Source: Alphaproteobacteria bacterium
GTDB lineage: Bacteria > Pseudomonadota > Alphaproteobacteria > Bin95
Assembly (NCBI GenBank): GCA_965205265.1
Contig: CBDBGH010000003.1
Span: 4,544,001 to 4,608,000, forward strand
DNA: 64,000 nucleotides
Direction of reading: 5' to 3'
The position numbers were made by a program, and so were the translations under genes. Of the stretch, positions 2,327 through 58,736 are shown one piece after another. Below the pieces are notes generated by a model that was given only the letters and a program-made list of their open reading frames with translations, did no database searches and was not told the origin of the DNA. Position 1 is the stretch's first letter. Each line of letters opens with the position of its first letter.

Positions 2327-3930
2327 CCCGCCCCGCCATGATCGTCGCCGCCCAGCCCGAGGCCGCGGAGGCCGGCGCCCGCGTGCTGCAGCGCGGCGGC
2401 AATGCCGTGGATGCGGCCATCGCCGCCGCCCTCGTGCAGGGCGTGGTCGATCCGCAGATGTGCGGCATAGCCGGCTTCGGCTCCTGTCATCTCTTCCTGC
2501 CGTCCCGGGGCGTTCATTGCTGCATCGACTTCCACGGAAAGACGCCGCTCGCCGCGCATCCGGCGATGTGGGAGGACCTGCTCGAAGGCGAGACGCGGGA
2601 CGGCTTCGGCTTCATCCTGAGGGGTCGCGTCAACGATCTCGGCTACCAGTCGATCGCCACGCCGGGCGCGCTCAAGGCCTATTTCGAGGCCGCAACGGAG
2701 TTCGGAAGCTGGGACTGGGCGGATATCTGCGCCCCTGCCGTGGCCCGGGCCCGCGAGGGCTTCACCGTGCGCCCGCATGTCGATTTCTGGTGGCGGCAGA
2801 CGGAGCAGCTCGGCCGCACCGCCAACCGGGAGCGCAATGCGTTCTCCGCTACGGGCCGGGCCGTCTATTTCCACGAGGACGGACGCCCGAAGGGCACGGG
2901 CGACCGGGTCGTCAATCCGGACCTCGCGCACACGCTGGAGCGCGTGGCCAGGAACGGCTCGGATATCTTCTACACCGGCGAGATCGCCGAGGAGATCGAC
3001 GCCGACATGCGCGCCAATGGCGGGCTGATGACGGCCGCCGACCTCGCCGCCTACCGCACGATCCGCACGGAGCCCATCTGGACGGGTTACCGGGGTCGGC
3101 GCGTCGCCTCCAACCGCCCGCCCGGCGGCGGCGTGCAGGTGTTGCAGATTCTGAACCAGCTCGAGCATTTCGACCTGGCCGCCATCGGGCACAACAGCAC
3201 GGAATATCTGCGCGTTGTCAGCGAGGCGATGAAACGGGCGACGCGCGACAAGGACGCCCATGTCGGCGACCCGGCCTTCTACGACGTGCCGCTGGACTGG
3301 CTGCTTTCCGGGGACTACGGCGCGGAACTCGCGGGCGAGATCGGGCGCGGCGAACAGGCGTCGGTCGCCCGGATTGCGCCGGAGCCGCCGGACACCACCC
3401 ATGTCGCGGTCGCGGACCGCGACGGCGGCATCGTCACCATGACCCACTCGCTCGGCATGCCGTCGGGCGTCATCACGCCGGGGCTGGGCTTCATGTATAA
3501 CGGCTGCATGGCGGTCTTCGATCCGCGCCCCGGCCGGGCCGGGTCCATCGCGCCCGGCAAGAGCCGGTTTTCCTCGCTCTGTCCGACAATCGTCTTCGAG
3601 GGCGACCGGCCCTGCCTCGCGCTCGGCGCGCCGGGCGGCACGCAGATCGCGATGGGCGTGACGCAGGCGATCCTGAATGTGCTCGACCACGGCATGACCA
3701 TGACCGAGGCGGTATCGGCGCCGCGTTTCTCCTCGACCTCGAACGCCATCGACATCTCGAACCGCATTCCGGGCTATGTCGTCGAGCCTCTGGAGCGGAT
3801 GGGCTATGAGATCGTCCGCAGCCCGCTCACCTTCGGCTTCGCGGCCGTCCATGGCATCAGGCTGCTGGCCGACGGCAGTCTCGACGGCGGGGCCGATCCG
3901 GGCCATGACGGCGTGGCGCTGCAGGTCTGA
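2323..3930 (+). CDS. ggt: Gamma-glutamyltransferase family protein
   Basis: ATG 2323 overlaps upstream stop (ATGA); GGNAVDAAIAAA, PQMCGIAGFG, catalytic DTTH, GAPGG. Confidence 0.9.
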   Translation: MTRPAMIVAAQPEAAEAGARVLQRGGNAVDAAIAAALVQGVVDPQMCGIAGFGSCHLFLPSRGVHCCIDFHGKTPLAAHPAMWEDLLEGETRDGFGFILRGRVNDLGYQSIATPGALKAYFEAATEFGSWDWADICAPAVARAREGFTVRPHVDFWWRQTEQLGRTANRERNAFSATGRAVYFHEDGRPKGTGDRVVNPDLAHTLERVARNGSDIFYTGEIAEEIDADMRANGGLMTAADLAAYRTIRTEPIWTGYRGRRVASNRPPGGGVQVLQILNQLEHFDLAAIGHNSTEYLRVVSEAMKRATRDKDAHVGDPAFYDVPLDWLLSGDYGAELAGEIGRGEQASVARIAPEPPDTTHVAVADRDGGIVTMTHSLGMPSGVITPGLGFMYNGCMAVFDPRPGRAGSIAPGKSRFSSLCPTIVFEGDRPCLALGAPGGTQIAMGVTQAILNVLDHGMTMTEAVSAPRFSSTSNAIDISNRIPGYVVEPLERMGYEIVRSPLTFGFAAVHGIRLLADGSLDGGADPGHDGVALQV

Positions 3931-3983
3931 CCCGGACGCCCTATACTGGCGTTGTTGCGGGACCTGCAGGAGAGGAGGGCGCC

Positions 3984-4889
3984 ATGTGCGGCATCGTCGG
4001 GCTGTATCTGAAGAACCCCGCCCTGGGCCCGCATCTGGGCCGCCTGTTCGCGCCGATGATGGGCGAGATGACCGAACGCGGCCCGGACAGCGCCGGTTTC
4101 GCGGTCTATCGCGAGGACGGCGGGAGGGAACGGGCGAAGGTCACCGTTTGCTCTTCCGTCCCCGGCTATGACTGGACCGGGCTCGCGGAGCGGGCCGGGC
4201 GCGAGCTCGGCGTCGAGGCGGCGGTCGAGCCGGCGTCGAACCATGCCGTTCTGAGCGCCGCCACCGACTCCGCCACCCTCCGCGACTGGGTCGAGGCTGG
4301 CCATCCCGAGCTCAGCGTCACGAGCTCCGGCGCGGCGCTCGAAATCTACAAGGATGTGGGCCTGCCGGCGGATGTCCTCGAACGCTTCGGGGTGAGCCAG
4401 ATGGCCGGCTCGCACATGATCGGCCACACCCGCATGGCGACCGAGAGCGCCGTGACGACCGAGGGCGCCCATCCCTTCAATACCGGCGACGACCTCTGCC
4501 TCGTGCATAACGGCTCGCTCTCCAACCACCACCGCCTGCGCGACTGGCTCCGGGACCGGCAGGGCGTGCGCTTCCGGACGGACAACGACACCGAGGTCGC
4601 CGCAGGCTACCTGACCTGGCGGATCGGCGAGGGCGCCAGCATCGCCGAGGCGCTGGAGGCCGGCATCCGGGACCTGGACGGCTTCTACACCTTCGCCGTC
4701 GGCACGAGGGACGGCTTCTCTGTGCTGCGCGACCCGATCGCCTGCAAGCCCGCCGTGATGGCCGAGAACGACGACTGGGTGGCGATGGCGTCCGAGTTCC
4801 GGGCGCTCGCCTGCCTGCCGGATGTCGAGGCCGCTTCCGTCTGGGAGCCGGAGCCGGGCAGGGTCTATAGCTGGGGCGGCGGCGCGTGA
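3984..4889 (+). CDS. glxB: Class II glutamine amidotransferase, N-methylglutamate synthase subunit A-like (MgsA)
   Basis: MCGIVG N-terminal nucleophile, RGPDSAG, GHTRMATES, HNGSLSN; good RBS; cluster context. Confidence 0.9.
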   Translation: MCGIVGLYLKNPALGPHLGRLFAPMMGEMTERGPDSAGFAVYREDGGRERAKVTVCSSVPGYDWTGLAERAGRELGVEAAVEPASNHAVLSAATDSATLRDWVEAGHPELSVTSSGAALEIYKDVGLPADVLERFGVSQMAGSHMIGHTRMATESAVTTEGAHPFNTGDDLCLVHNGSLSNHHRLRDWLRDRQGVRFRTDNDTEVAAGYLTWRIGEGASIAEALEAGIRDLDGFYTFAVGTRDGFSVLRDPIACKPAVMAENDDWVAMASEFRALACLPDVEAASVWEPEPGRVYSWGGGA

Positions 4890-5575
4890 CGGCGGAGACC
4901 ATAGACCTCGACGCGGCCGGCGTCCGGGCGCTGAACCGGCGCCTCCAGGGGCGCGAGGGGCCGGTGGCCGGCAGGCGTTTCGTCGTGACCAATGCCAAAG
5001 GGCGCCATGCGATCGCCGCCGGGCTGACGGAACGGATGGACGTCCGGATCCACGGCCATGTCGGCTATTACTGCGCGGGCATGAACCAACTTGCCGATGT
5101 GACGGTGGACGGCAATGCCGGCACCGGCGTCGCGGAGAACCTGATGTCGGGCGCCGTCCGGGTGACGGGCGACGCCAGCCAGTCGGCCGGTGCGAGCGGG
5201 CGCGGCGGCCTGCTCGTGATCGAGGGCAGCGCCAGCGCCCGCTGCGGCATAACGATGAAGGGCATCGACATCGTGGTGGGCGGTTCCATCGGGCATATGT
5301 CCGCCTTCATGGCGCAGGCCGGGCGGCTCGTGGTCTGCGGGGACGCGGGCGCCTATCTCGGCGACTCGATCTACGAAGCGGAGATTTTCGTCCGGGGCCG
5401 GGTGGAGAGCCTGGGCGCGGACTGCATCGAGAAGGAGCTGAGCGCGGAGGACGCAAGCGCGCTGGAGGCGCTGCTGGCGGAGGCCGGCATGGACGGCGAT
5501 GCGAGCGGGTTCCGCCGCTACGGCTCGGCGCGCCGGCTCTACAATTTCCGTATCGACAATGCGGCGGCCTATTAG
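4886..5575 (+). CDS. glxC: GXGXG beta-helix protein, N-methylglutamate synthase subunit B-like (MgsB)
   Basis: GYYCAGMN, GVAENLMSG, GDSIYE repeats of glutamate-synthase C-terminal type. Confidence 0.9.
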   Translation: MTAETIDLDAAGVRALNRRLQGREGPVAGRRFVVTNAKGRHAIAAGLTERMDVRIHGHVGYYCAGMNQLADVTVDGNAGTGVAENLMSGAVRVTGDASQSAGASGRGGLLVIEGSASARCGITMKGIDIVVGGSIGHMSAFMAQAGRLVVCGDAGAYLGDSIYEAEIFVRGRVESLGADCIEKELSAEDASALEALLAEAGMDGDASGFRRYGSARRLYNFRIDNAAAY

Positions 5576-5585
5576 GGAAGACATC

Positions 5586-6899
5586 ATGGCAGGCGATTAC
5601 CCGGAGCGGTCCTGGGCCACCTTCCCGCCGCATGTCATCTCGGAGATTCACCGCGCGGCGGACCAGGGCCTCTATTACATCCGCGGTGCGGGCGCGCGCC
5701 GGGCGCTGCCGACATTCGACGACCTGGTTTTCCTCGGCGCCTCCGTCTCGCGCTACCCGCTGGAGGGCTACCGGGAGCGCTGCGACACGAATGTGACCAT
5801 AGGCGCCCGCCATGCGTCGCGGCCGGTCGAGCTCAAGATCCCGATCACCATTGCCGGCATGAGCTTCGGCGCGCTCAGCGCCAATGCCAAGCGCGCGCTC
5901 GGCCTCGGCGCGAGCGCCATGGGCACCAGCACGACCACCGGCGACGGCGGCATGACGATGGAGGAGCGCGAGGCGTCGGAAACGCTCGTCTATCAGGTGC
6001 TGCCGTCCCGTTACGGCATGGACCCGGACCATCTGCGCCTCGCCGACGCGATAGAGGTCGTGGTCGGGCAGGGCGCCAAGCCCGGCGGCGGCGGGATGCT
6101 GCTCGGCCAGAAGGTGACCGAGCGGGTGGCGGAGATGCGTACCCTTCCGGCCGGCATCGACCAGCGCAGCGCCTGCCGGCATCCCGACTGGACGGGACCG
6201 GACGACCTCGCGATCAAGATCCTGGAACTGCGCGAGATCGTGAACTGGGAAAAGCCGGTCTATGTGAAGGTCGGCGCGACGCGGACCCAGTATGACGTGG
6301 CGCTCGCGGTGAAGGCCGGCGCGGACGCCGTTGTGGTGGACGGCATGCAGGGCGGCACGGCCGCCACCCAGGAAGTGTTCATCGAGGATGTCGGCATCCC
6401 GACGCTGCCCGCAGTCCGCCTCGCCGTGGAGGCGCTCAAGGAGCTCGGCGTCCACCGCGAGGTGCAGTTGATCGTGTCGGGCGGCATTCGCACGGGCTCC
6501 GATGTCGCCAAGGCGCTCGCGCTCGGCGCCGATGCCGTCTCCATCGGCATGGCCGCGCTGATGGCGCTCAATTGCAATGCCCCGCTCCATGTCGAGGACT
6601 ACGAAGCGCTCGGCACCCGGCCGGGGGCGTGCAATATGTGCCAGACGGGCCGCTGCCCCGTCGGGGTCGCGACCCAGGACCCGCTTCTGGAAGCGCGGCT
6701 CGACCCGGAAGAGGCCGGGCGGCGCGTGCGCAACTACCTGTCCACCCTTACCATGGAATGCCAGACCCTCGCGCGCGCCTGCGGCAAGAGCCATGTCCAC
6801 AATCTGGAGCCCGAGGACCTTGCCGCCCTCACTGTCGAAGCGGCGGCGATGGCGCAGGTGCCTCTGGCCGGCACCGACTGGATTCCGGGCCGGCGCTGA
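5586..6899 (+). CDS. glxD: FMN-binding glutamate synthase family, N-methylglutamate synthase subunit C-like (MgsC)
   Basis: AGMSFGALS, GQGAKPGGGG, CNMCQTGRCPVG Fe-S motif; ATG 5586 chosen. Confidence 0.9.
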   Translation: MAGDYPERSWATFPPHVISEIHRAADQGLYYIRGAGARRALPTFDDLVFLGASVSRYPLEGYRERCDTNVTIGARHASRPVELKIPITIAGMSFGALSANAKRALGLGASAMGTSTTTGDGGMTMEEREASETLVYQVLPSRYGMDPDHLRLADAIEVVVGQGAKPGGGGMLLGQKVTERVAEMRTLPAGIDQRSACRHPDWTGPDDLAIKILELREIVNWEKPVYVKVGATRTQYDVALAVKAGADAVVVDGMQGGTAATQEVFIEDVGIPTLPAVRLAVEALKELGVHREVQLIVSGGIRTGSDVAKALALGADAVSIGMAALMALNCNAPLHVEDYEALGTRPGACNMCQTGRCPVGVATQDPLLEARLDPEEAGRRVRNYLSTLTMECQTLARACGKSHVHNLEPEDLAALTVEAAAMAQVPLAGTDWIPGRR

Positions 6900-6932
6900 A
6901 AGCGCCCGCCCCTGCAGACCGAAAGGACGACC

Positions 6933-8237
6933 ATGACCGGCAAGCTGGAAGCCTTCGCGAAGGCGAACGACGTCAGGTATTTCCTGTTCAACTTCACCGA
7001 CATTCGCGGCATGCAGCGCTCAAAGCTGGTGCCGGCGGCCGCCGCGCCGGCGATGGAGGAGGCGGGCGCGGGGTTTGCGGGCTTCGCCACCTATCTGGAC
7101 ATGACGCCCGCCCATCCCGACATGCTGGCCGTACCCGATACCGCGAGCGTCATCCGCCTTCCTTGGCAGCCGGACGTGGCGTGGGTCGCCGGGGACCTCG
7201 TGATGGACGGCCGGCCGGTCGGGCAGGCGCCGCGCGTCGTGCTGAAGAACCTCGTCGCCAGGGCTGCGGCCGAGGGCTTCCGGATGAAGACCGGCGTCGA
7301 GGCTGAATACCACCTGATCGACGCCGACGGCGCCGGAATTTCGGACCCGCGCGATATCGACGCGAAGCCCTGCTACGACCAGCAGGCGCTGATGCGCCGC
7401 TACGATGTCGTCTCCGAGATCTGCGACGCCATGCTGGAGCTCGGCTGGGGGCCCTACCAGAACGACCATGAGGACGCCAACGGCCAGTTCGAGATGAACT
7501 GGGATTATGACGACGCGCTGGTGACGGCGGACCGGCACGCCTTCTTCAAATTCATGGTGAAGTCGATTGCCGAGAAGCACGGGCTGCGCGCGACCTTCAT
7601 GCCGAAGCCGTTCCTGAGCCTCACAGGCAACGGTTGCCACGCGCATGTGTCGGTGTGGGATACGGACGGGCGGACCAACCTGTTCCACGATCCGGACGGG
7701 GAGCTCGGCCTCTCGGAACTGGCCCTCAACTTCCTCGGCGGCGTGCTCCACCATGCCGAGGGGCTCTGCGCCATCACCAACCCCATCGTGAACTCCTACA
7801 AGCGTATCAACGCGCCGGTGACGGCCTCGGGTGCCACATGGTCGCCCAACACCGTGACCTGGACGGGCAACAACCGCACCCACATGGTGCGCATCCCCGA
7901 CGAGGGCCGCTTCGAGTTCCGGCTCGCCGACGGCGCGGCCAACCCCTATCTGCTGCAGGCGGCCTGCCTGGCGGCCGGCCTCGACGGAATCGCGAACAAG
8001 CGCGACCCGGGCAGGCGCAGCGACCTCGACATGTATGCCGAAGGCCACAGGCGCCGGGTCAGGCGGCTGCCGAACTACCTGCTCGATGCGGTCCGGGCGT
8101 TCGACCGGAATACGGTGCTGAAAGACGCGCTCGGGGCGGAGTTCTCGTCCGCCTATGTGAAGCTGAAGATGCAGGAATGGGACGCCTATTCCCGCCATCT
8201 GAGCGACTGGGAGCGGGAGACCTCGCTGGACATCTGA
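6933..8237 (+). CDS. glnT: Type III glutamine synthetase-like, gamma-glutamylmethylamide synthetase (GmaS)
   Basis: GAGFAGFA, KPCYDQQALMRRY, QNDHEDANGQFEMNW, SGATWSPN; adjacent to glxBCD. Confidence 0.9.
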   Translation: MTGKLEAFAKANDVRYFLFNFTDIRGMQRSKLVPAAAAPAMEEAGAGFAGFATYLDMTPAHPDMLAVPDTASVIRLPWQPDVAWVAGDLVMDGRPVGQAPRVVLKNLVARAAAEGFRMKTGVEAEYHLIDADGAGISDPRDIDAKPCYDQQALMRRYDVVSEICDAMLELGWGPYQNDHEDANGQFEMNWDYDDALVTADRHAFFKFMVKSIAEKHGLRATFMPKPFLSLTGNGCHAHVSVWDTDGRTNLFHDPDGELGLSELALNFLGGVLHHAEGLCAITNPIVNSYKRINAPVTASGATWSPNTVTWTGNNRTHMVRIPDEGRFEFRLADGAANPYLLQAACLAAGLDGIANKRDPGRRSDLDMYAEGHRRRVRRLPNYLLDAVRAFDRNTVLKDALGAEFSSAYVKLKMQEWDAYSRHLSDWERETSLDI

Positions 8238-50597: not shown

Positions 50598-52093
50598 GCC
50601 TGGAACGGTTTCCGCCCGGTCGGAAATCTCCGTGGGAACTGTAGGCCATCGTCTCGTTCTCCTGCTCCGGCCTCCAACCGGGGTCGATCGGCCGGGCGCC
50701 GGAAACCGGTTTGCAGTTCGGGAATTTTACAAGAGCCTCTTCCCGTAATATCGTCGTCCCATCTTCAGGGGGAAGCTGTGGCTCGCCCGCGAGGCCGAAC
50801 GGTCCCGGGGGCTTCCCTGTCATTGAACCGACTTCGAGAGCGCCGCTTCGCTGTCATCGACTGCGGCCTCCATTGCGGCCGAGGCGCCGCAACGAGCCCC
50901 TGCCGGCATCCTTGCAACGGCGCAAGCGCTTAGGCTGGCAGGACGCGCCGGACTTTCGAGGGGACGGGGCCGAATTGCAGGCCCGGTTCCGGCTTATGGC
51001 GCAAACCGCATCCGTGGCGCGTCGGTCCGAAGCCGGGCCGACCCATGACATGCCGGTCCGGACAGGACCGGCGGATAACCGGGAGTAGGATCGAGCTATG
51101 GAAAGTGTGTCCCTGTCGACGAAGAACTCGGAGTTTGAACTCGAACGCCAGAGCTACAGCGACGACCCGCTGGAGGATCGCGAAACCGATCTCTACCGCG
51201 GCGAGTACATCCTGTCCTTTGTGGAGAAGTGGGACGAGCTGATTAACTGGGCGGCGCGCGCCGAGAGCGAGGGACAGTTTTTCATCGATGTGCTTCGCGC
51301 CCGGGGCAAGGCATCCGTGTTGGATGTCGCCTGCGGCACGGGGTTCCACTCGGTGCGCCTGACCGAGGCCGGCTTCGATGTGACATCGAGCGACGGGTCG
51401 GCCACGATGCTGGCCAAGGCCTTCGAGAACGCCAGGGCGCGCGGGCTGATCCTCAAGACGGTCCAGGCCGACTGGCGTTGGCTGAACCGTCACATCCAGG
51501 GCAAGTACGATGCGATCATCTGCCTCGGCAACTCGTTCACCCACCTGCATGAGGAGCAGGACCGCCGCCGCGCCCTGGCCGAGTTCTACGCCGCGCTGAA
51601 GCATGACGGGATGCTGATCCTGGACCAGCGCAACTACGACGCCATGCTGGACGAGGGCTTTTCATCGAAGCACAAATACTACTACTGCGGCGACGAGGTG
51701 AATGCGGAGCCCGAATATATCGACGACAGCCTCGTCCGGATGAAATACAGCTTCGCCGACGGTTCCGACTACACGCTCAACCTCAGTCCGATCCGCAAGA
51801 ATTACATGCGCCGGCTGCTCGGCGAGGCCGGGTTCGCGCGGGTACGCACCTATGGCGACTTCCAGGAGACTTACGCCGAGAACGAGCCGGACTTCTTCAT
51901 TCATATCGCCGAGAAATCCACGCTGCATGTCGTGCGCTGGGGCGGCGGCGTCCGCGAGGAGGGCGAGAGCGACGTTCGCGACATCACCGAGGACTATTAC
52001 GACAGCGACGACGCCGACACGTTCTACTCGATGGTCTGGGGCGGCGAGGACCTGCATCTCGGCATCTACGAGACGACGCAGGACATTCGCGAG

Positions 52094-52308
52094 GCCAGCG
52101 CCGAAACCGTCGACCGGATGATGGCGATGCTGCCGGGTATCGGCCCCGGCTCCCGCGTTCTGGACATCGGCGCCGGCTATGGCGGCTCGGTGCGGCGCGT
52201 CGTCGGGCGGACCGGCTGCACGGCGACATGCCTCAACATCTCCGAGACGCAGAACGACACCAACCGGGCCAGGAACCGGCAGGCGAAACTCGGCAGCCGG
52301 ATATCGGT
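52094..52308 (+). repeat. 215-bp target duplication, left copy
   Basis: GCCAGCGCCGAAACC...GGATATCGGT repeated at 56232-56446. Confidence 0.95.
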
Positions 52309-52427
52309 CCTGACTTCGACGGTTGGGCTGACTTCTGACCGATCTCGCGTCTGGAGTTTTCAGTAAAGCCAATGAGTTGGCAGTTGCGGTGCGGTCAAGC
52401 TGCGTTGTAGTGCCTAGTAAATCTTTG

Positions 52428-52518
52428 AGACTGTCAATGCCTCCGCCACGCGCTACACTCCCCCCATGTTCGTGCGCATCAAGACCTCCCCCAACAGCCC
52501 GCGACGCTCGGTCCAGAT
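52428..52518 (+). repeat. 91-bp target duplication of inner IS, left copy
   Basis: AGACTGTCAATG...GTCCAGAT repeated at 54435-54525 directly after the inner right IR. Confidence 0.93.
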
Positions 52519-52640
52519 CCTGACTTCGACGGTTGGGCTGACTTCTGACCGATCTCGCGTCTGGAGTTTTCAGTAAAGCCAATGAGTTGGCAGTTGCGGT
52601 GCGGTCAAGCTGCGTTGTAGTGCCTAGTAAATCTTTGAGA

Positions 52641-52669
52641 CTGTCAATGCCTCCGCCACGCGCTACACT
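52641..52669 (+). promoter_or_regulatory. Putative sigma70 promoter of transposase (probably leaderless)
   Basis: CTGTCA-17 bp-TACACT, 6 C then ATG, no SD; also at 52431-52459 and 54438-54466. Confidence 0.5.
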
Positions 52670-52675
52670 CCCCCC

Positions 52676-54331
52676 ATGTTCGTGCGCATCAAGACCTCCC
52701 CCAACAGCCCGCGACGCTCGGTCCAGATCGTCGAGGCCGTGCGCGACGGCGGCAAGGTCCGACAGCGCATCGTCCGCCATGTCGGCGTGGCCATGGACGA
52801 GGACGAGCTCGAGCGCCTGAGGCAGCTCGGCGAGTACGTCAAGGCGAAGCTGGAGGACGAGCGTCAGCCGGCATTGTTTGCGCCCGAGAAGATCGCTGAG
52901 CAGGCGATCCGTGTCGGCCGCCGGGGGGACGGCAAGGAGGAACTCCCGGTCGACCTCAAGCAGCTTGAAGAGGAGCAGCGCCTGATCACAGGCATCCACG
53001 AGGTCTATGGCGAGATCTACCGGCTGCTGGGCCTCGACGCGCTGCTGCCGCGCTCGCGCTACCGGGCCTCCCATGACGCGCTGTTCCATGTGGTGATGGC
53101 GCGGGTAGCCAACCCCGACAGCAAGCGGGGCAGCGTGCGCCGGCTCGAGGAGGACTTCGGCGTGAGTCTTCCGCTCGAGAAGGTCTACCGGATGATGGAT
53201 CAGCTCGACGCGACGGTGATCGAGCGACTGCGCACGCGCGTCGGCGAGGCGAGCCGGTCGCTGCTGCCGGAGCCGGTCGCGATCCTCTTCTTCGATTGCA
53301 CCACGCTCTACTTCGAGACGGCCGCCGAGGACGAGCTTCGCCAGCACGGCTTCAGCAAGGACGGCAAACACAAGGACTCGCAGGTTCTGCTGGCGCTGAT
53401 GGTGACGCGCGAAGGGCTGCCGATCAGCTACGAGGTCTTCCCCGGCGCCACCTACGAGGGACACAGCATGGTCCCGGTCCTGCAGGACATGCAGCGCCGC
53501 CACCAGGTGGAGCGCACGGTATGCGTGGCCGACCGGGGCATGCTGAGCGCCGACAACCTCGACGCCATGGACGCCATCGGCGGCGAGTATGTCGTCGGCG
53601 CGCGGCTGCGCAAGCTGCCGCTCGCGCTGCTGGGGCAGGTTCTCGACCCCGGGACCTATGCCCCGCTGGAGGGCTCACAGGACCGCCGGGTCGGCGAGTG
53701 GGAGTACAAGGGCCGTCGCCTGATCGTCGTCTTCTGCCCCCAGCGCGCACGCAAGGACGCGCACGAGCGCCGCCATCAGGTGGAACGCCTGCTCGACAGG
53801 CTGGCCCGCAGCGACAATCCCAGGGAACTGCTCTCCAATCACGGGGCGAAGCGCTTCATCGCCGTCGAGGGCGACGCACGGCTCACGGTGAACCCGGAGA
53901 AGATCGCCGAGGCCGCACGATGGGACGGGCTCACCGGCGTCATCACCAATCTGCGCGACGCGCGCGTCACCGAAGTGATGGCTCACTACCAGGGGCTCTG
54001 GCAGGTCGAGGAGAGCTTCCGGATCACCAAACACGACCTGAAGATACGTCCCATCTGGCACTGGAACCCGGACCGGATCCGCGCTCACATCGCCATCGCC
54101 TTCCTGGCCTTCGCCTGCGTTCGACACCTTGCGTACCGCGTCGCCATCCAGAAGCGGCGGATGTCCCCGGAGGTCATCCGCTCCGCCCTCGTCCACCGCC
54201 AGTGCTCCCTGCTGCGCTGTCGGCAATCGGGCAACCGCTACGTCATCCCCTCGAAGCCGACACCGGCGGCGGAGCAGATTTACGCAACCATGGGGCTGCC
54301 CCTGACGATCACCCCGTATCAACTCGCCTGA
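52676..54331 (+). CDS. IS1634 family DDE transposase (copy 1)
   Basis: FFDCTTLYFE, GFSKDGK, VADRGM, WQVEESFRITK, IRAHIAIAF. Confidence 0.93.
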   Translation: MFVRIKTSPNSPRRSVQIVEAVRDGGKVRQRIVRHVGVAMDEDELERLRQLGEYVKAKLEDERQPALFAPEKIAEQAIRVGRRGDGKEELPVDLKQLEEEQRLITGIHEVYGEIYRLLGLDALLPRSRYRASHDALFHVVMARVANPDSKRGSVRRLEEDFGVSLPLEKVYRMMDQLDATVIERLRTRVGEASRSLLPEPVAILFFDCTTLYFETAAEDELRQHGFSKDGKHKDSQVLLALMVTREGLPISYEVFPGATYEGHSMVPVLQDMQRRHQVERTVCVADRGMLSADNLDAMDAIGGEYVVGARLRKLPLALLGQVLDPGTYAPLEGSQDRRVGEWEYKGRRLIVVFCPQRARKDAHERRHQVERLLDRLARSDNPRELLSNHGAKRFIAVEGDARLTVNPEKIAEAARWDGLTGVITNLRDARVTEVMAHYQGLWQVEESFRITKHDLKIRPIWHWNPDRIRAHIAIAFLAFACVRHLAYRVAIQKRRMSPEVIRSALVHRQCSLLRCRQSGNRYVIPSKPTPAAEQIYATMGLPLTITPYQLA

Positions 54332-54397
54332 CCGTCGACGAAGCACGGCTCGAAGAAATGCCGGATGTAGTGCCTAGCCGAAATGAGAACCAGGCAA

Positions 54398-54410
54398 TAT
54401 CAACTACTTA
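54398..54410 (+). promoter_or_regulatory. IHF consensus site near IS right end
   Basis: TATCAACTACTTA matches WATCAANNNNTTR; also at 56195-56207. Confidence 0.55.
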
Positions 54411-54434
54411 TGCGAATCAACCGTCGAAGTCAGG

Positions 54435-54525
54435 AGACTGTCAATGCCTCCGCCACGCGCTACACTCCCCCCATGTTCGTGCGCATCAAGACCTCCCCCA
54501 ACAGCCCGCGACGCTCGGTCCAGAT
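54435..54525 (+). repeat. 91-bp target duplication, right copy
   Basis: Matches 52428-52518. Confidence 0.93.
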
Positions 54526-56128
54526 CGTCGAGGCCGTGCGCGACGGCGGCAAGGTCCGACAGCGCATCGTCCGCCATGTCGGCGTGGCCATGGACGAGGA
54601 CGAGCTCGAGCGCCTGAGGCAGCTCGGCGAGTACGTCAAGGCGAAGCTGGAGGACGAGCGTCAGCCGGCATTGTTTGCGCCCGAGAAGATCGCTGAGCAG
54701 GCGATCCGTGTCGGCCGCCGGGGGGACGGCAAGGAGGAACTCCCGGTCGACCTCAAGCAGCTTGAAGAGGAGCAGCGCCTGATCACAGGCATCCACGAGG
54801 TCTATGGCGAGATCTACCGGCTGCTGGGCCTCGACGCGCTGCTGCCGCGCTCGCGCTACCGGGCCTCCCATGACGCGCTGTTCCATGTGGTGATGGCGCG
54901 GGTAGCCAACCCCGACAGCAAGCGGGGCAGCGTGCGCCGGCTCGAGGAGGACTTCGGCGTGAGTCTTCCGCTCGAGAAGGTCTACCGGATGATGGATCAG
55001 CTCGACGCGACGGTGATCGAGCGACTGCGCACGCGCGTCGGCGAGGCGAGCCGGTCGCTGCTGCCGGAGCCGGTCGCGATCCTCTTCTTCGATTGCACCA
55101 CGCTCTACTTCGAGACGGCCGCCGAGGACGAGCTTCGCCAGCACGGCTTCAGCAAGGACGGCAAACACAAGGACTCGCAGGTTCTGCTGGCGCTGATGGT
55201 GACGCGCGAAGGGCTGCCGATCAGCTACGAGGTCTTCCCCGGCGCCACCTACGAGGGACACAGCATGGTCCCGGTCCTGCAGGACATGCAGCGCCGCCAC
55301 CAGGTGGAGCGCACGGTATGCGTGGCCGACCGGGGCATGCTGAGCGCCGACAACCTCGACGCCATGGACGCCATCGGCGGCGAGTATGTCGTCGGCGCGC
55401 GGCTGCGCAAGCTGCCGCTCGCGCTGCTGGGGCAGGTTCTCGACCCCGGGACCTATGCCCCGCTGGAGGGCTCACAGGACCGCCGGGTCGGCGAGTGGGA
55501 GTACAAGGGCCGTCGCCTGATCGTCGTCTTCTGCCCCCAGCGCGCACGCAAGGACGCGCACGAGCGCCGCCATCAGGTGGAACGCCTGCTCGACAGGCTG
55601 GCCCGCAGCGACAATCCCAGGGAACTGCTCTCCAATCACGGGGCGAAGCGCTTCATCGCCGTCGAGGGCGACGCACGGCTCACGGTGAACCCGGAGAAGA
55701 TCGCCGAGGCCGCACGATGGGACGGGCTCACCGGCGTCATCACCAATCTGCGCGACGCGCGCGTCACCGAAGTGATGGCTCACTACCAGGGGCTCTGGCA
55801 GGTCGAGGAGAGCTTCCGGATCACCAAACACGACCTGAAGATACGTCCCATCTGGCACTGGAACCCGGACCGGATCCGCGCTCACATCGCCATCGCCTTC
55901 CTGGCCTTCGCCTGCGTTCGACACCTTGCGTACCGCGTCGCCATCCAGAAGCGGCGGATGTCCCCGGAGGTCATCCGCTCCGCCCTCGTCCACCGCCAGT
56001 GCTCCCTGCTGCGCTGTCGGCAATCGGGCAACCGCTACGTCATCCCCTCGAAGCCGACACCGGCGGCGGAGCAGATTTACGCAACCATGGGGCTGCCCCT
56101 GACGATCACCCCGTATCAACTCGCCTGA
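54473..56128 (+). CDS. IS1634 family DDE transposase (copy 2, same 551-aa translation)
   Basis: Translation matches copy 1; start codon supplied by the 91-bp duplication. Confidence 0.93.
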   Translation: MFVRIKTSPNSPRRSVQIVEAVRDGGKVRQRIVRHVGVAMDEDELERLRQLGEYVKAKLEDERQPALFAPEKIAEQAIRVGRRGDGKEELPVDLKQLEEEQRLITGIHEVYGEIYRLLGLDALLPRSRYRASHDALFHVVMARVANPDSKRGSVRRLEEDFGVSLPLEKVYRMMDQLDATVIERLRTRVGEASRSLLPEPVAILFFDCTTLYFETAAEDELRQHGFSKDGKHKDSQVLLALMVTREGLPISYEVFPGATYEGHSMVPVLQDMQRRHQVERTVCVADRGMLSADNLDAMDAIGGEYVVGARLRKLPLALLGQVLDPGTYAPLEGSQDRRVGEWEYKGRRLIVVFCPQRARKDAHERRHQVERLLDRLARSDNPRELLSNHGAKRFIAVEGDARLTVNPEKIAEAARWDGLTGVITNLRDARVTEVMAHYQGLWQVEESFRITKHDLKIRPIWHWNPDRIRAHIAIAFLAFACVRHLAYRVAIQKRRMSPEVIRSALVHRQCSLLRCRQSGNRYVIPSKPTPAAEQIYATMGLPLTITPYQLA

Positions 56129-56231
56129 CCGTCGACGAAGCACGGCTCGAAGAAATGCCGGATGTAGTGCCTAGCCGAAATGAGAACCAGGCAATATCAA
56201 CTACTTATGCGAATCAACCGTCGAAGTCAGG

Positions 56232-56446
56232 GCCAGCGCCGAAACCGTCGACCGGATGATGGCGATGCTGCCGGGTATCGGCCCCGGCTCCCGCGTTCTG
56301 GACATCGGCGCCGGCTATGGCGGCTCGGTGCGGCGCGTCGTCGGGCGGACCGGCTGCACGGCGACATGCCTCAACATCTCCGAGACGCAGAACGACACCA
56401 ACCGGGCCAGGAACCGGCAGGCGAAACTCGGCAGCCGGATATCGGT
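56232..56446 (+). repeat. 215-bp target duplication, right copy
   Basis: Matches 52094-52308. Confidence 0.95.
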
Positions 56447-56967
56447 GGTGCACGGCGTCTTCGAGGACATCCCCGACCCGGACGCCAGCTATGACGCGGT
56501 ATGGAGCCAGGACGCCCTCCTGCATTCCGACCAGCGCGACAGGGTGCTGGCCGAAGTCTGGCGCGTGCTGAAGCCGGGCGGCCACTTCGTGTTCACCGAC
56601 CCGATGCAGGCCGACGACGTGCCGGACGGCGTGCTCCAGCCCGTTTACGACCGGCTCCAGCTCAACAGTCTCGGCTCCATGCGCTTCTACCGGGAGGCGG
56701 CGCAGGCGCTGGGCTTCGAGGTGTTGGCGCAGGAGGACATGACCCGTCATCTCCGCACCCACTACGACCGGGTGCGGGAGGAGCTCACGGCCGGTTACGA
56801 CAAGCTGCGGGAAAACGGCGCCTCGGCGGCGTATCTCGACAAGATGACCGTCGGCCTCGAGAACTGGGTGAAGGCCGCGGATGCCGGACACCTGGCCTGG
56901 GGCATCCAGCTTTTCCGCAAGCCGGAGTGAGGCGCCGGCGCGCCCGCCGCACCGGCCCGTTTGCATC

Positions 56968-58646: not shown

Positions 58647-58736
58647 TGGCGGTGGGGGTGGGATTCGAACCCACGGTACGCTTGCGCGTACAACGGTTTT
58701 CGAGACCGCCCCGTTCAACCGCTCCGGCACCCCACC
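58647..58736 (-). tRNA. tRNA-Ser (CGA)
   Basis: 90 nt; acceptor GGTGGGG/CCCCACC, anticodon arm GCGGT-CTCGAAA-ACCGT, long variable arm, GGTTCGAATCC, encoded CCA. Confidence 0.97.

Follow-up and report, generated by a model that had tools for sequence, protein, structure and literature searches.

A long-repeat IS1634-family insertion sequence nested within an identical copy of itself, with two complete transposase genes

Introduction

Insertion sequences (ISs) of the IS1634 family are described as elements of 1500–2000 bp with ends of the form C-----YT and a transposase that carries the motif Y-x2-(non-R)-x3-E-x6-K, a variant of the YREK signature in which the arginine is present in only 5 of 32 members; the spacer between the second D and the E is called long, without a numerical threshold in the available excerpt of the family description (PMC2266710). 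According to the same excerpt, most members duplicate 5–6 bp of their target, IS1549 and IS1634 are flanked by repeats of 8–514 bp, and no mechanistic model is proposed for these long repeats (PMC2266710). A 6-bp duplication is given for ISGka5 of Geobacillus kaustophilus in the accessible part of a separate report (PMC8024623). As for insertion of an IS into its own kind, the available portion of a laboratory evolution study of IS1 describes IS-within-IS events at the chance rate, and states that ISs typically lack target immunity and that nested copies give rise to variants (PMC12065110). Here, we analyze a 64,000-nucleotide stretch of an alphaproteobacterial genome (GenBank assembly GCA_965205265.1, contig CBDBGH010000003.1, positions 4,544,001–4,608,000; hereafter the window, with coordinates counted from its first base), which contains a 3923-bp nested unit formed by two identical copies of a new member of the IS1634 family. 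In making long, variable repeats, the element behaves like IS1549 (Mycobacterium smegmatis) and IS1634 (Mycoplasma mycoides), and the duplication that brackets the inner copy includes the start of the transposase gene of the outer copy, so that two complete transposase genes are present.

Results and Discussion

Architecture of the nested unit

A repeat search combined with direct string comparison placed a complete element of 1916 bp at 52519–54434 on the plus strand. The element sequence on either side of it, 52309–52518 and 54526–56231, also sums to 1916 bp and shows 0 mismatches to the inner element. The left part of this outer element (52309–52518, plus strand; element positions 1–210) is identical to 52519–52728, while its right part, counted from the start of the duplicated interval (54435–56231, plus strand; element positions 120–1916), is identical to 52638–54434. 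The insertion point of the inner copy lies between outer-element positions 210 and 211, and a perfect direct repeat of 91 bp, covering positions 120–210, brackets the inner copy at 52428–52518 on the left and 54435–54525 on the right. The whole 3923-bp unit (52309–56231) is itself bracketed by a perfect repeat of 215 bp, 52094–52308 and 56232–56446, or of 216 bp (52093–52308 and 56231–56446) if one ambiguous base is counted. Every junction is ambiguous by 1 bp because the adjoining bases are coincidentally identical, which gives 91–93 bp for the inner duplication and 215–216 bp for the outer one. The positions and lengths of the inner element, the outer halves and the 91-bp repeat had been proposed in an earlier note on this DNA, and all of them were reproduced to the base. 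The outer repeat was merely implied there, through the coordinates 52094–56446.

The terminal inverted repeat of the element is the perfect 17-mer CCTGACTTCGACGGTTG. Its left-end form begins in the 64-kb window only at 52309 (52309–52325, plus strand, within the outer left part) and at 52519 (52519–52535, inner element), and its right-end form ends at 54434 (54418–54434) and at 56231 (56215–56231). Along the unit, the ends therefore follow one another as left, left, right, right, without a right–left junction. One copy inside another is the only parse that puts all four junctions exactly at element ends, as the self-insertion parse of the earlier note had it, and chance identity over 1.9 kb is impossible. 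The four pairings of left and right ends calculated in that note, 1916, 2126, 3713 and 3923 bp, follow from the confirmed coordinates; the note put these four units forward as potentially mobile.

Two other arrangements were considered for this region. A tandem IS dimer, (IS)2, in which a right end abuts a left end a few bp apart, is ruled out by the left–left–right–right order, and a composite transposon with passenger genes is ruled out by the content of 52309–56231, which is element sequence only. Open reading frames in other frames or on the opposite strand across the element matched no Pfam family.

The outer repeat could be judged against the gene that the unit interrupts, which encodes a protein with two methyltransferase domains as detected with Pfam. 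An intact homologue of 564 aa (P0003), 96% identical, aligns with the left gene piece (51098–52308, plus strand) over residues 1–403 and with the right gene piece (56232–56930, plus strand, including the stop codon) over residues 333–564. Residues 333–403, encoded by the repeat, are single in the intact protein and occur twice in the window; the outer repeat is therefore a true target duplication.

A new IS1634-family element

The reading frames at 52676–54331 (inner gene, plus strand) and 54473–56128 (rebuilt outer gene, plus strand) are translated into the same 551 residues, and both transposases are thus intact, in agreement with the earlier note; the second frame also extends without a stop from an earlier ATG at 54383, which lies in the right end of the inner copy. 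The transposase matches the NCBIfam IS1634 model NF033559 over model positions 1–482 of 483 with 341.3 bits against a cutoff of 100 (E = 1.1e-101), which bears out the family membership suggested before. The next best transposase model, IS4, gives 45.8 bits, under its own cutoff, and all other transposase models also remain under theirs. A match to Pfam DDE_Tnp_1 (54 bits; cutoff 23) indicates an IS4-type DDE catalytic domain, in which motif reading would assign D207, D286 and E445 as the DDE residues. The YREK variant reads Y438-Q-G-L441-W-Q-V-E445-x6-K452, with leucine in place of arginine. The length of 1916 bp and the ends, which start CCTGACTT, likewise fall within the published description of the family. 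The spacer between D286 and E445 is 159 residues.

On plasmids of cultured bacteria, the nearest annotated IS1634-family transposases share only 28–31% identity with this protein, and all 126 matching records lie below 60%. A search of solved structures with the transposase sequence returned no match at E values up to 1.

Long and variable target duplications in relatives

One scan of genome contigs yielded 76 loci with relatives of the element. The hosts are uncultured marine Alphaproteobacteria and, for the more distant relatives, metagenome-assembled genomes of Poriferihabitaceae, Pseudohongiella and Pseudomonadales. Flanking repeats were measured at the exact element ends in 63 copies with consistent ends, namely 61 relatives and the two copies of the window. 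A full-length element with the same ends and 84.7–99.5% nucleotide identity to the window element is present at 33 loci (L001–L032 and L066). Perfect flanking repeats of 21–1318 bp were found in 27 of these 33 close copies and none in five; the repeat of the remaining copy, L024, is 217 bp long and imperfect (5 mismatches). In the more distant clade (50–59% protein identity; Poriferihabitaceae and Pseudohongiella genomes), perfect repeats of 16–408 bp flank 17 of 28 copies, a count from which L055 was excluded because its right end is truncated. Taken together, 46 of the 63 copies have a perfect flanking repeat of at least 16 bp (range 16–1318 bp; median 137.5 bp), and the 91 and 215 bp seen in the window are therefore typical for this element. 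The earlier statement that elements of this type make long, variable direct repeats is borne out by these counts.

With repeats that are long and differ in length between copies, the element falls into the long-repeat subgroup of the family. It resembles IS1549 and IS1634 in the family model and in copy-variable repeats of tens to hundreds of bp. Unlike these two, its close relatives reach 978 bp (L014), 1309 bp (L009) and 1318 bp (L030), and these three, together with the next longest perfect repeats of 751 bp (L010) and 684 bp (L029), lie well above the published 8–514 bp; the five elements concerned sit at about 4844–6766 in each locus. Typical family members such as ISGka5 share with the window element the DDE transposase, the motif, the length and the C-----YT ends. 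In contrast to their 5–6 bp, which is the family norm, the duplications measure 91 and 215 bp here and 16–1318 bp in the relatives. A search of open-access text found no paper on kilobase duplications for the IS1634 family.

Around the 33 close relatives, no extra element fragment of at least 100 bp was present within ~4.8 kb to the left or right. Two of these relatives, L022 and L024, lie on one contig and share their flanks and the 217-bp repeat, which is perfect in L022, an indication that the element was copied as part of a larger segment.

The inner duplication carries a conserved promoter-like layout

The case for a promoter rests on comparison with relatives, for which eleven elements representing all clades were aligned at their 5′ ends. 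The alignment contains an invariant box, TTGTAGTGCCTA, at element positions 97–108, and a fixed layout consisting of a -35-like hexamer at 123–128, a 17-nt spacer, TAnnnT at 146–151, six bases and the start codon at 158. Across the fetched loci, both box and start are present in 76 elements; TAnnnT stands at its fixed offset in 73 of these and TTGnnn in 64. In the few elements missing TAnnnT the layout is shifted by one base, eight of those missing TTGnnn carry TTTACT instead, and the spacer sequence is variable throughout. By this comparison, the putative promoter of the inner gene (52641–52669, plus strand) would comprise a -35 hexamer CTGTCA, a 17-nt spacer and a -10 hexamer TACACT, an architecture kept in the relatives. 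The equivalent hexamers are found at 52431–52459 (plus strand) in the outer left part and at 54438–54466 in the right copy of the duplication, where the ATG follows at 54473.

The duplicated interval 120–210 includes both hexamers, the ATG and the first 17.7 codons. Because the conserved arrangement of -35, 17 nt, -10 and ATG lies inside the 91-bp duplication, the rebuilt gene retains a likely promoter, and the comparison with relatives thereby lends support to the earlier proposal that promoter and ATG are both contained in the duplication. By translation, the left copy of the start opens a remnant frame of 36 codons (52466–52576, plus strand) that continues into the inner element. Judged by general knowledge of bacterial promoters, the distance of 6 nt from the -10 hexamer to the ATG suggests a transcript that is leaderless or nearly so.

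A 13-nt box, TTGTAGTGCCTAG, is located at 52405–52417 (plus strand, in the outer left part), 52615–52627, 54365–54377 and 56162–56174. It lies ~100 bp inside the left end and again ~70 bp inside the right end, there with one mismatch and in the same orientation, not inverted. At the left end, the box is invariant across clades of 50–59% protein identity, and the right-end box is conserved too; the box may be a binding site.

Target preference and spacing of the two joints

In 60 copies from the loci and the window, a T adjoins the element at 44 of 60 left joints and, read on the other strand, at 44 of 60 right joints (binomial p = 6e-12 for 44/60 against a background of 0.3, a value that treats copies in duplicated flanks as independent, which they are not fully). 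A pyrimidine occupies position -2 at 43 of 60 left and 51 of 60 right joints. In the window, the T is present at three of the four joints. A Rayleigh scan of the 46 repeat lengths over periods of 9.5–12 bp detected no significant helical phasing; the smallest p value among the 26 periods tried, before any correction, was 0.05, for a period of 10.0 bp.

Two strand transfers with a common local preference and no fixed spacing would fit both the YT symmetry and the aperiodic lengths. To our knowledge, every characterised DDE transposase has a fixed stagger that is imposed by a single synaptic complex. We raise, as a tentative and somewhat doubtful possibility, that the ends of this element are uncoupled, each picking its own 5′-YT site, with anything between ~16 bp and 1.3 kb separating the two sites and no fixed stagger. 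The symmetric YT preference, the broad and unphased repeat lengths and the rebuilt gene are compatible with uncoupled ends and do not prove them. If the proposal is true, kilobase duplications would be built into the reaction and could regenerate promoters and gene starts at insertion sites, even inside the element itself, and the cost of transposition would thus be softened.

Other nested copies and the fate of the interrupted gene

Nesting was also found in relatives. In L038, a complete copy (4866–6758) is nested in an outer copy (3301–7355), with a perfect inner repeat of 254 bp and a perfect outer repeat of 211 bp; the inner copy differs from the two parts of the outer one at 108 + 29 positions (92.1% and 95.1% identity). 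L051 has a complete copy that lies within a reversed one and is flanked by a perfect 86-bp repeat. A candidate third nested relative, L044, is without the far half and without the repeat. The duplications in L038 and L051 fall in mid-gene (reference positions 1297–1551 and 1258–1348, respectively) and leave the outer gene split, so both genes are kept in one of the three clear nested cases. For the outer gene to remain complete, the duplicated stretch must start at the insertion point and extend either backwards beyond the promoter or forwards beyond the stop.

Two claims of the earlier note need qualification in this light. That long duplications make self-insertion harmless applies only where the duplicated stretch extends to an end of the gene, and fails for L038 and L051, where the outer gene is broken. 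That the element lacks target immunity is consistent with the three insertions into the same or a related copy but is overstated, this being the normal state for ISs; these events, a self-insertion in the window and one insertion into a related copy in each of L038 and L051, speak against immunity of the Tn3, Tn7 or Mu type. IS1 makes short duplications, so that a nested insertion within a gene breaks that gene. Unlike in IS1, the 91-bp duplication of the window re-creates the likely promoter and the start of the interrupted gene. The two elements are alike in that an IS lies within its own copy and shows no self-avoidance, and both the absence of target immunity and the new variants that arise from nested ends are already published for IS1 in the portion of the study cited above (PMC12065110).

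In three further relatives, the transposase gene is interrupted by the same unrelated insert of ~137 bp (L037, 6400–6527; L047, 6400–6527; L060, ~6449–6576). The insert has inverted repeats of its own, AGACTGTGCAA..., and a duplication of 7–8 bp, CTCAAGAG. Because the three loci have different flanks, the element interrupted in this way has spread, which lends indirect support to the idea that units with a broken gene can move.

Origin of the nested unit

Based on these data, we propose a plausible history of the unit. A first copy would have inserted into a chromosomal glycine/sarcosine methyltransferase gene, duplicating 215 bp. A second, identical copy, possibly derived from the resident copy, from the sister chromosome or from another locus, would then have inserted into the first one. 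In this second insertion, one strand transfer would have occurred at element position 119/120 and the other, ~91 bp away, at 210/211, and gap repair would have duplicated positions 120–210. The right copy of the duplication would thereby have been joined to what remains of the outer element, giving a complete transposase gene, whereas the left copy would have been left as the 36-codon stub. From the structure, we infer the order of the two events, and also that either gene could be expressed and that the unit could be mobile at present. We estimate a probability of about 80% for this reading as a whole, namely that a previously uncatalogued long-repeat IS of the IS1634 family, as compared with IS1549 and IS1634 by family model and published description, inserted sequentially into itself and rebuilt a gene start in doing so.

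Several observations weigh against it. Not a single base differs between the inner and the outer copy, which is the most error-prone case for assemblers, and the structure is known from the assembly alone. A perfect flanking repeat of at least 16 bp is absent from 17 of the 63 measured copies, L024 among them. A simple scan of 52000–56600 for consensus promoters and terminators found nothing, the putative promoter of the inner gene being below its threshold. The -35 hexamer CTGTCA of the window (52641–52646 and 54438–54443) is the sole one starting with C among the elements compared; the 99.5%-identical copy at L001 has TTGTCA, nearly all other relatives start with TT, and the C may be a promoter-down change. 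In the rebuilt copy, moreover, the promoter is preceded by the right end of the inner element, where the native promoter has the conserved box and an AT-rich stretch. Because of the C-start -35 hexamer and the loss of box and AT-rich stretch, the rebuilt gene may be only weakly expressed or may rely on transcripts that read through from the inner one.

The same architecture could have arisen in a different way if the nested unit had formed elsewhere and had moved as one 3923-bp piece, through its outermost ends, into the methyltransferase gene. The 215-bp duplication at the outermost ends is equally compatible with such a move, interrupted-gene elements with intact ends do spread, as the loci with the ~137-bp insert illustrate, and the excerpted IS1 study reports variants from nested copies (PMC12065110). 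The move requires an extra step, however, and no second copy of the 3923-bp unit, nor of the 2126- or 3713-bp units, was seen among the 33 close relatives; we consider it unlikely. An assembly artefact, in which a single element is present and reads from several identical copies were mis-joined, would draw on the identity of the two copies and on the fact that repeats are the usual cause of mis-assembly, but appears quite improbable. A mis-join is not expected to put both internal junctions at the exact termini and to leave a perfect 91-bp duplication of the right polarity. Moreover, the same architecture is found in the independent assembly of L038, the copies of which differ at 137 positions and are not confusable, and, if the window comes from a long-read assembly, its 4.1-kb structure including the repeats would be short compared with the reads. 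The first 210–211 bp of the element are tandemly repeated, as they would be if recombination or replication slippage, and no second transposition, had duplicated part of the element in tandem. Slippage or unequal crossing-over, however, gives head-to-tail units and not a complete element bounded by inverted repeats that interrupts a copy with an overlapping 91-bp duplication, and the region cannot be broken down into simple tandem units, which makes this explanation very improbable indeed.

The nested copy is real and neat, and a fairly ordinary, unsurprising outcome of long-duplication behaviour. It is a natural example of how an insertion near a gene start can re-create the gene through a long target duplication, and the unit provides four potentially usable ends within 4 kb. 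The wider clade is the more interesting lead: among its dozens of copies from independent assemblies, perfect repeats reach 1.3 kb and YT is preferred symmetrically at both joints, and it offers many clean insertion sites and a defined element for bench tests.

The interrupted methyltransferase gene and its surroundings

The best homologues of the interrupted gene product are 564 aa long, and those that are named are glycine/sarcosine/dimethylglycine N-methyltransferases. Owing to the 215-bp duplication, the right gene piece still encodes the S-adenosylmethionine-binding motif of the second domain, and it has an ATG in frame at 56256. Because ~40 residues from the start of the second domain are missing, this right piece of a fused two-domain betaine-pathway methyltransferase is probably inactive.

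A low-GC stretch at 18–22 kb of the window contains ordinary genes (a GntR regulator, an AMP-binding enzyme and a PhyH dioxygenase), and no mobile element was found in it. Rfam and tRNA scans of the 64-kb window detected a single tRNA-Ser, unrelated to the element, and nothing else. This tRNA gene (anticodon CGA; 58647–58736, minus strand) lies between the genes for methylenetetrahydrofolate reductase and ribosomal protein L21, which are, like the tRNA gene itself, ordinary chromosomal neighbours of the unit. Further neighbouring genes encode amino-acid-kinase/PUA, aldehyde-dehydrogenase, cytidylyltransferase-like and RsfS domain proteins.

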